Source of the DNA: a virus
Lineage: Duplodnaviria; Caudoviricetes
Direction: 5' to 3' (one strand)
DNA: 64,000 bases
IMG/VR virus record: IMGVR_UViG_3300033068_001847
Location: 1-64,000 of that record
The notes below the pieces were generated by a model that saw nothing but the letters and a program-made list of their open reading frames with translations, made no database searches and was not told the origin of the DNA. A program made the translations under genes and the position numbers. Below are positions 62,406-63,773 of the stretch, piece after piece. Position 1 is the first letter of the stretch; each line of letters opens with the position of its first letter.

Positions 62406-63236
62406 CTATTTTTTCTCTAAATCTTTAATTATCAAATCTCTTATATATTCAGACATTGTTACATGTAATCCTTGTTCAATAGATAATTCTTTTAATCTAT
62501 CAACAACATCATTATATATCTCTTTTTCCACACGTACTGGTGGTATTTTTAACGGTTTAAGGGTTACATTATTAATAAACTCACCTAATATTTCTCTTGT
62601 ATACATTTTATCTCTATCACCATTCATATAACGTTTTTTAACATCTGAATCTTCATGAAATAAAGGTTTAAGTGAAAGTTTATGAAAGTAATTACTTTCA
62701 TTAGTAAACATTTCATAAAACCAACCCTTCTTTTCCATCGGTGTAGATATAACAATAAGTTTACCTCCTGTTGATAACATCGGTAATAAGGAAATCCAGA
62801 AATTATCAAGATTCTTTATAAAAGCAGCCTGATCTATAATTACTATATCTGGTGTATATCCACAAAGTCCTGATTCATTAACAGTTCTAGCTTCGATACT
62901 ACCTGCTAAAAACTCTCTTCTAAATAAATTTTTATAAGTGATATCATCATTACCGATCTTATCAATTTTAGCTAAAAAATGTTTACCGTTTTCTTGTTTA
63001 ACACCAAAATATAAAATAGATTTATCATAGTGGAGTACTGCATAAGCTGCTGCGAAAGTAGAACATCCTGTTTGTCTAGGTGATTTAATTATAGTGAACT
63101 GGTTATTTTCAACAGCATCATAAAATAATAAAGCATTTTCTTCATTTAATTTATATCTTTCTTTTTCAAATTTCTGATTATTAATTGATATAGTTTTCTC
63201 TATATTTTTAATATACATTTGTTTTTTTAAATCCAT
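62406..63236 (-). CDS. degenerate terminase-like ATPase domain fused to ribbon-helix-helix domain
   Basis: KSPRQTGCST, IIDQAAF, VISTP..GWFY; C-terminal PVRVEKEIY...MSEYIRDLI; no nuclease domain. Confidence 0.65.
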   Translation of the reverse strand: MDLKKQMYIKNIEKTISINNQKFEKERYKLNEENALLFYDAVENNQFTIIKSPRQTGCSTFAAAYAVLHYDKSILYFGVKQENGKHFLAKIDKIGNDDITYKNLFRREFLAGSIEARTVNESGLCGYTPDIVIIDQAAFIKNLDNFWISLLPMLSTGGKLIVISTPMEKKGWFYEMFTNESNYFHKLSLKPLFHEDSDVKKRYMNGDRDKMYTREILGEFINNVTLKPLKIPPVRVEKEIYNDVVDRLKELSIEQGLHVTMSEYIRDLIIKDLEKK

Positions 63237-63262: not shown

Positions 63263-63296
63263 TTTGTAATACCTTTTTGTATTTATGTATTACAAA
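63263..63296. promoter_or_regulatory. inverted repeat, candidate RHH operator
   Basis: TTTGTAATAC-N14-GTATTACAAA upstream of the RHH fusion gene. Confidence 0.5.
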
Positions 63297-63325
63297 AAAC
63301 CCTCAGAGTTTTAATTCCGAGGGTT
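63294..63325 (-). terminator. intrinsic terminator
   Basis: AACCCUCGGA/UCUGAGGGUU stem plus U run. Confidence 0.8.
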
Positions 63326-63327
63326 CA

Positions 63328-63353
63328 CCGTAACATTAACTAACGGTCCTAAG
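63328..63353 (-). other. element complementary to 23S rRNA helix 69 region
   Basis: Plus strand CCGTAAC-attaac-TAACGGTCCTAAG versus conserved 23S CCGTAAC-TA-TAACGGTCCTAAG. Confidence 0.55.
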
Positions 63354-63377
63354 TCAAATTAATGTTTATTTTAAATA

Positions 63378-63773
63378 TTATTGTTCTTTACCGTATTTTT
63401 GTTCCCACCTATCTTGTACTAATTTCAAAGCTGCTACACCATCTTTCTCATCACAAAGTAACCTGATAGCTGTAATTTTAGCTTTATCTCCTTCAACAAA
63501 TTTAATTGCTGAAGCTCTATGGTGACCATCTAATATATGATCCTTCAAAGAGATGTAAATAGGTTTTGCTGTTTTTATATCGGTTTGTTTAGACATTTTC
63601 TTAATTTTATCTAAATCAACTTCTTTTTGTAATGGTTTAAGTTGTCCTACAGATACAATCACTGGTCTTACGTGTATATCAAATTCAAGTAGCGTATCCT
63701 TTACAAATCTGAAAGGTGCACTTACTTGCGGTAAATAAAACGGCTGTATCGGCTTCTGTTTTTGTTCTTCCAT
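63378..63773 (-). CDS. ParB/Srx N-terminal-like domain protein
   Basis: LKPLQ, PIYIS...ILDGHHRASA; TATTTATA at 63778-63785. Confidence 0.75.
   Translation of the reverse strand: MEEQKQKPIQPFYLPQVSAPFRFVKDTLLEFDIHVRPVIVSVGQLKPLQKEVDLDKIKKMSKQTDIKTAKPIYISLKDHILDGHHRASAIKFVEGDKAKITAIRLLCDEKDGVAALKLVQDRWEQKYGKEQ

Follow-up and report, generated by a model that had tools for sequence, protein, structure and literature searches.

What is a sequence antisense to helix 69 of 23S rRNA doing in a short spacer between two phage genes? The question is raised by an uncultured giant phage whose IMG/VR record spans 184 kb and is estimated to be 53% complete; the analysis centers on the first 64 kb (this whole 64-kb stretch is termed the window). 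On the minus strand of the window, an ORF for a 131-aa ParB-like protein is followed by a 141-nt spacer, an ORF for a 276-aa TerL-ATPase-like protein and a glycosyltransferase gene. An earlier, sequence-only reading had placed the strings CUUAGGACCGUUA, GUUAAU and GUUACGG between the ParB-like stop codon and a strong terminator, and all of them are indeed found there on the minus strand. The features of the locus are as follows:

63378..63773, minus strand: upstream ParB-like ORF of 131 aa with a DGHHR motif (phrog_2859), ending with TAA
63333..63365, minus strand: hairpin Px, with a 9+3-pair stem and the loop UUAGGACC (63352..63345); MFE fold, z = -4.9
63341..63353, minus strand: motif 1 string CUUAGGACCGUUA, antisense to 23S U1917-G1929 (helix 69 3′ strand plus the linker to helix 70)
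63335..63340, minus strand: the 6-nt sequence GUUAAU between the two antisense strings
63328..63334, minus strand: GUUACGG, antisense to 23S C1908-C1914 (helix 69 5′ strand and loop)
63297..63326, minus strand: P2, an intrinsic terminator hairpin of 11 pairs with the loop AUUAAAAC
63294..63299, minus strand: U-run after terminator P2
63263..63296, minus strand: second, A+U-rich hairpin read from the sequence, with a 10-bp stem directly after the terminator and then another U-run
62406..63236, minus strand: downstream ORF of 276 aa, a TerL-ATPase-like paralog with the ATPase domain only, 27-32% identical to TerLs

Anatomy of the window locus

True 23S rRNA copies (L043, L045, L192 and L202) all read GGCCGTAAC-TA-TAACGGTCCTAAGGTAGCGAA. 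Relative to these copies, the window strings are antisense to C1908-C1914 and U1917-G1929 and skip U1915-A1916, which bears out the complementarity of 13 nt plus 7 nt, broken at the helix 69 loop, that had been proposed for this spacer. In the 23S numbering used here, the U after GCGAAA falls at 1939, the known m5U1939. The 32-nt target is identical in the 23S copies of four records, namely L043, a Paenibacillus phage record (L045) and two Chloroflexia MAGs. The longer string, CUUAGGACCGUUA, lies 24 nt from the ParB-like stop codon, and this exact copy is the only one in the 184-kb record, the window included.

A single 13-mer match to 23S rRNA is not above chance in the window. Specifically, 13-mers common to the window and one gammaproteobacterial 23S rRNA occur at 8 window positions, and shuffled windows give a mean of 2.8. 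The adjacent 7-mer brings the chance of the pair to roughly 0.01 (about 1 in 100) by our estimate. The bipartite duplex of the window RNA with 23S rRNA is predicted to reach -34.7 kcal/mol, a rough figure, versus -21.8 +/- 4.1 kcal/mol for shuffles. No anti-16S-tail element was found in the window. The decisive support for the element is its conservation in other phages, not the 13-mer.

The first eight bases of motif 1 form the loop UUAGGACC in the MFE fold of the window. An alternative fold has a short anti-helix 69 hairpin (ACCGU/ACGGU) and leaves CUUAGG free. Terminator P2 and the A+U-rich hairpin with its own U-run make up a tandem terminator, of which 63263-63296 (minus strand) is the second part. 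The loop of the A+U-rich hairpin contains AUAAAUA about 40 nt ahead of the next start codon, a string that resembles T4-type late promoters.

The label ParB-like, used in the sequence-only reading, reflects the DGHHR motif and phrog_2859, and the 131-aa ORF has no Pfam match. Its homologs are P0003-P0011, and the closest relatives of the gene are 84%, 72% and 67% identical. Single-protein locus searches with both flanking proteins found no loci. The downstream 276-aa ORF was considered as the terminase of this phage and rejected because a full-length TerL is encoded elsewhere in the record, at about 138010-139605 (minus strand) and about 75 kb from the paralog. This TerL is 41-43% identical to the TerLs of group B phages of the family described below; its gene is directly coupled to the gene upstream, and no element was found upstream of it. 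In L039 (positions 1900-2050), a glycosyltransferase homolog comes directly after the ParB-like gene and the element. The TerL-ATPase paralog therefore appears to have been inserted in the window, or lost in L039, between conserved neighbors.

A phage RNA family with two motifs antisense to adjoining parts of 23S rRNA

When IMG/VR was scanned with an exact pattern for the helix 69-like pair, three unrelated loci from phages were found in which a stop codon, the element and a terminator follow one another as in the window. A looser scan yielded two further groups whose terminator loop carries GUAGCGAA in sense, which corresponds to the rRNA bases following ...CCUAAG in 23S rRNA. The resulting family pattern (motif 1, 8-38 nt, UCGCUAC), again used in an exact-pattern scan, is present in at least 120 IMG/VR contigs, and only 2 of the 127 matches listed are likely to be coding-sequence chance.

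The canonical members begin 3-32 nt downstream of a stop codon, where an optional upstream hairpin precedes motif 1 (UUAGGACCGUUA); in an upstream alternative seen in the family, a strand pairs with CCGU and makes UUAGGA a loop. The end of motif 1 is shared with the 5′ strand of a variable hairpin, after which comes an A-rich linker. The element closes with a terminator hairpin that carries motif 2 (UUCGCUAC) in a loop of 10-13 nt, and with a U-run. Motif 1 is antisense to 23S positions 1917-1928, which comprise the end of the helix 69 loop, the 3′ strand and the linker, and motif 2 is antisense to positions 1930-1937, the 5′ strand or start of helix 70. The two 23S targets adjoin, and the motifs stand in swapped order in the family RNA.

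All 12 bases of motif 1 are invariant in 89 distinct family sequences; both motifs stood in the search patterns, and their invariance is therefore partly built in. The terminator hairpin carries compensatory changes at 7 of 7 pairs in the family alignment of the matches listed. Furthermore, the two-helix structure has 82% paired cells versus 64% in shuffles and also exceeds slid controls. Single-sequence MFE folds leave motif 1 mostly unpaired over UUAGGA and always place the core of motif 2 in a loop.

We built a covariance model (R1) from 89 canonical sequences, leaving out the window and its lineage. R1 matches the window at 63380..63287 (minus strand) with 33.7 bits (E 5e-5 to 8e-5), and this is its only match in the 184-kb record (next best E 0.85). 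The window element thus belongs to the family. A chance resemblance beside an ordinary terminator, for which 13-mer matches to 23S rRNA expected in 64 kb might speak, is scarcely credible in the face of this match (E 5e-5), the homologous elements of L039 and L040 and the number of family members (at least 120). Measured against random 13-mer rRNA matches, as the sequence-only reading had suggested, the 13-mer by itself does not stand out, whereas the motif does by recurring in at least 120 phage contigs.

MFE energies and G-U counts gave no discrimination between the two strands. The gene context is more informative, since a same-strand ORF ends 3-32 nt upstream at 102 of the 118 judgeable loci (126 loci among the matches listed). 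The placement of the motif between stop codon and terminator recurs in other phages. The next same-strand ORF usually begins 20-120 nt past the element, and U-runs follow the terminator hairpin. In two tRNA arrays, the element lies 7-18 nt from the preceding tRNA gene:

L155, 2187-2234, plus strand: family member in a tRNA array, on the same strand as the tRNAs
L185, 2315-2361, minus strand: family member in a tRNA array, on the same strand as the tRNAs and with no U-run

Together, the same-strand ORFs, U-runs and tRNA arrays indicate that the transcribed strand is the one antisense to 23S rRNA. The location of the L155 and L185 members between same-strand tRNAs, the latter without a U-run, suggests tRNA-like processing into a stable small RNA of about 70 nt. 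ARAGORN calls the neighboring tRNAs in both loci and leaves the element uncalled; it finds no tRNA or tmRNA in the window. A reading of the two motifs as an anticodon loop or T-loop was abandoned because T-loop position 58 is wrong and ARAGORN calls no element.

This strand assignment bears on an earlier suggestion that the element is a hairpin decoy for helix 69-binding proteins. The plus strand resembles helix 69 with an enlarged loop, and, if active, it might act as a look-alike for RluD, RlmH, RRF and the like. Such a decoy needs sense-strand transcription, which nothing supports, since flanking ORFs, tRNA arrays and U-runs all place transcription on the minus strand. Furthermore, the rRNA segments of the family stand in a swapped order that mimics nothing, and most members have replaced the helix 69 stem by unrelated stems. 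We regard a decoy as very improbable.

The genes around the element are varied. TerL lies downstream in 5 of 41 distinct cases among the matches listed, and the other downstream genes encode a Mom-like protein, a baseplate hub, an initiation factor-like protein and HNH endonucleases. Ribonucleotide reductase and tail tube genes are among those upstream. A tie of the element to terL, first seen in the window, L041, L044 and group B, was dropped on account of the 5 in 41 count. The diversity on both sides indicates that the element is an autonomous module of T4-like and huge phages, and not a terL leader. About 20 of the 43 distinct upstream proteins among the matches listed are a conserved protein of about 170 aa that precedes the main RNA class, as in this example:

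L084, 5017-5520, plus strand: ~170-aa protein with 19 homologs and invariant Cys, His and acidic positions

This protein matches no Pfam or PHROG family and lacks a homolog in the genome of the window, and it may or may not be functionally linked to the RNA.

Two further observations concern the surroundings of the element. The string ATATTTAT(A) recurs 10-30 nt past the U-run in many otherwise different loci and may be a promoter for the next gene. Also, the element lies no more than a few hundred bases from a contig end much more often than expected for random placement (e.g. L042, L050, L054, L057, L080, L092, L096, L113 and L157), and assembly breaks, genome ends and local hypervariability are all possible reasons.

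A scan of 596 Gb of bacterial and archaeal genomes with the same pattern gave a single real member. It lies on a 3.7-kb contig that was binned with a Polynucleobacter MAG, and the remaining matches are rRNA genes or coding chance. Because only this one member was found, the family is phage-specific and apparently not carried by prophages. BLAST searches of 50,697 records of cultured or deposited phages, with the region and family members as queries, returned only rRNA contaminants and terminator-like chance matches. R1 has no match in a T4 genome, and a scan for further window-type variants gave only coding chance matches.

These distributions also weigh on a DNA-level explanation, in which the element is a relic homing target of the I-CeuI type, an attachment site or a packaging site. 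The 23S stretch does include the I-CeuI site, and the element stands just upstream of terL in some lineages. A homing or attachment site, as the sequence-only reading had entertained, requires a contiguous rDNA-like sequence, and this view is left unsupported because the segments of the family are swapped and essentially absent from bacterial genomes. The rDNA likeness is split and permuted: in the window it goes no further than ...CCTAAG, and family members carry the next rRNA bases on the other side of the element. Moreover, the 596 Gb scan gave no prophage junctions with the element in bacterial chromosomes, TerL follows in only the few cases counted above, and the covariation is of the RNA type. 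A DNA site is thus, in our judgment, highly unlikely.

Positions outside the search pattern were informative as well. A U precedes UCGCUAC in 82% of the family sequences listed as matches, and a pyrimidine that can pair with G1929 follows it in 93% of them. G occupies the first loop position of the middle hairpin in at least 90%; it is often part of GUUA(C), a string antisense to G1910-C1914. These unforced positions fit predicted pairing with 23S rRNA. Antisense helix 69 is retained in full in some lineages, reaching 22 nt in L080 and 19 nt in L085, and no outward extension of complementarity was found past 12 plus 8-9 nt.

The family is apparently undescribed in Rfam 15 and in the searchable literature. 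Rfam 15 has no match on the element, either in the window at the gathering score or in six canonical loci at E of at most 1. Full-text searches that included the motif strings returned only 23S primers, probes and I-CeuI sites. A 2023 catalogue lists over 10,000 candidate structured RNAs from IMG/VR (PMC10690425), the same data source, and these are likewise intergenic, covarying and often terminator-containing. That article does not discuss rRNA complementarity, and the catalogue may include this family unnamed.

The window copy and its relatives

The 12-nt motif 1 (UUAGGACCGUUA) is exact in the window at 63352..63341, and motif 2 is absent from the terminator loop, which reads AUUAAAAC. L040, which encodes a 51% identical homolog of the ParB-like protein, has a fully canonical element (47.9 bits) in which the loop AAUUCGCUACU, at the place aligned to the window loop AAUUAAAACU, is motif 2. 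L039, another locus with a ParB-like homolog, scores 26.8 bits, lacks motif 2 and has motif 1 altered to CUUAGGAUCG. All three elements show GACUUAGGA in a hairpin loop, carried on stems that differ and compensate. The 7-mer GUUACGG is present in the window and L039 and absent from L040.

From these comparisons, the window copy is a divergent, one-armed family member that has lost motif 2. The 13 nt plus 7 nt anatomy noted earlier therefore needs amendment: the strings are real, and the canonical second contact is the terminator-loop motif that this copy has lost. The lineage has kept the remainder of the element through substantial divergence despite losing motif 2, which makes plain decay less likely. 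A further member lies in a published 735-kb uncultured phage genome, where it is unannotated in the record:

LR756501.1 (locus L224), 92809-92908, minus strand: family member, 59.9 bits, starting about 3 nt past a stop codon

This member has a C-to-U change in motif 1; its intramolecular partner has changed as well, and a G-U pair with 23S rRNA is still possible.

The variants allow a purely historical likeness to be weighed, in which an inverted piece of rDNA was captured once and the family has been kept as a protein-binding site or terminator module. The window copy would then be a decaying relic that is now only a terminator. The whole antisense helix 69 of L080 and L085 would fit such an origin, as would the loss of motif 2 in the window and L039 and the additional change of motif 1 in L039. 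In contrast, the 20 motif bases (part of the search pattern) are fixed while stems, linkers and flanking genes diverge completely, and GACUUAGGA is kept in a covarying loop of the window and L039 beside a protein that is only 51% identical. A plain terminator would need none of these features, and we consider the historical explanation unlikely.

Probable pairing with the large ribosomal subunit

Two fixed motifs that complement adjoining parts of rRNA are very unlikely to reflect coincidence. Because the motifs face adjoining conserved rRNA in phages of widely different base composition, the simplest reading is that they pair with 23S rRNA; from this pattern we infer both the target and the effect of binding. 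We think it probable that the element is a phage-specific small structured RNA that pairs with host 23S rRNA in free or assembling 50S subunits. The original idea of a terminator-ended RNA that pairs with the helix 69 region would thus hold in outline, given the at least 120 family elements, the exposed antisense bases and the transcribed strand.

In the mechanism that we propose, transcription would yield the element at mRNA ends or, for certain phages, from within tRNA arrays. Motif 1 would be displayed unpaired in a linker or hairpin loop and motif 2 in the terminator loop. Because the targets adjoin and the motif order is swapped, both motifs could clamp one continuous rRNA strand. Binding would begin at the exposed linker and helix 69 loop of 23S rRNA, and the bridge-forming surface that faces the 30S subunit would be blocked or marked by the bound RNA, which should impede the joining of subunits or their maturation. 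Bridges B2a and B2b are made by helix 69 and by positions near 1922 and 1932, and domain IV is late to fold as the 50S subunit assembles. The accessible form would therefore be a free or immature 50S subunit. The window copy would act through motif 1 in a hairpin loop, 7 nt that match helix 69 on its other strand, and the terminator. The absence of motif 2 in the window and L039 would mean either that one contact is enough or that the copy of this lineage is decaying.

Several points count against pairing with 23S rRNA. Complementarity ends at 12 plus 8-9 nt, the constancy of the motifs is in part a product of the search patterns, and the window and L039 lack motif 2. The target is folded and partly buried in mature ribosomes. 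Ribosomes are also very abundant, and stoichiometric inhibition needs a very abundant RNA. The diverse neighboring genes give no functional hint, and no partner protein for the RNA was found.

The same pairing could alternatively serve a cis-acting 3′ UTR or intercistronic device that keeps terminating or free large subunits near the phage mRNA, such that their reuse on the next gene is favored or the message is stabilized. The short distance from the stop codon (3-32 nt at 102 loci among the matches listed) and the usual start of a same-strand ORF 20-120 nt after the element would suit this device, and eukaryotic viral parallels exist. In contrast, a strong terminator separates the element from the next gene, the tRNA-array members L155 and L185 have no adjoining ORF on the 5′ side, and helix 69 is engaged in the 70S ribosome. 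We therefore see a cis-acting role as an unlikely alternative to an RNA that binds free or assembling subunits.

Bacterial 3′ UTR-derived base-pairing sRNAs of the CpxQ, SroC and DapZ type offer one comparison. These RNAs are reviewed by Miyakoshi et al. (2015), as cited in PMC8545117. As in the CpxQ type, the family element comes right after a stop codon and shares the intrinsic terminator of the mRNA, a short conserved unpaired seed stands ahead of the terminator, and an A-rich linker and a U-tail are present in many members; the likeness is one of layout only. Unlike these sRNAs, the family is phage-encoded, its seed complements rRNA rather than mRNAs, and it carries a second seed within the terminator loop, the two standing in swapped order.

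CopA/CopT and RNA I/RNA II are plasmid antisense systems whose RNAs present their complementary bases in loops. The family likewise displays its complementary bases in hairpin loops and a single-stranded stretch, and in some members the hairpin is the exact complement of helix 69, which would suit kissing followed by strand invasion. The target of CopA or RNA I is the opposite-strand transcript of its own locus, whereas the only known RNA that matches the family is host 23S rRNA. A cis-encoded antisense RNA has its target in the same replicon, and no sense copy of motif 1 was found elsewhere in the 184-kb record, which is about 53% complete.

The rRNA guides of archaea and eukaryotes are the box C/D and H/ACA RNAs, the latter pairing in a bipartite manner that leaves two target bases unpaired. 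Like these guides, the family is a small RNA with 10-20 nt antisense to the universally conserved rRNA core, and the two arms of the window copy skip U1915-A1916, a modified site, in the manner of H/ACA RNAs. Inspection of the element sequence revealed no C/D or H/ACA boxes. Unlike H/ACA arms, those of the window are 6 nt apart without an upper stem, and the second arm of the family is directed at 1930-1937. To our knowledge, no partner proteins of the C/D or H/ACA kind exist in bacteria or these phages.

Viral ribosome-binding elements include the BYDV-type 3′ enhancers, the calicivirus termination-reinitiation motif and the 60S-binding 3′ element of turnip crinkle virus. These also are viral RNA near a 3′ end or stop codon that is complementary to the host ribosome or has affinity for it. 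They differ in being eukaryotic, cis-acting and mostly directed at the small subunit.

We propose tentatively, and with slightly less than even confidence, that tailed phages of many lineages, megaphages included, may control subunit joining or 50S maturation by RNA pairing with helices 69-70. If so, no earlier case is known of a natural trans-acting RNA that regulates the bacterial ribosome through pairing with rRNA, and the window copy would be a natural one-armed variant. Together with L039, it provides natural deletion variants that reveal which part is kept when motif 2 is gone, namely motif 1 in a loop and the terminator. If the pairing is real, the RNA would be a host-independent phage handle on the ribosome, and the identity of the target in the compared 23S copies from distant bacterial lineages would account for the fixation of 20 shared bases in phages that differ greatly in base composition. 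rRNA would join the known targets of bacterial and phage base-pairing RNAs in that case, and a new route of host takeover or of ribosome assembly control would be in view. Helix 69 has already been explored with synthetic oligomers, and the family would then offer a natural template for antisense inhibitors aimed at this helix.
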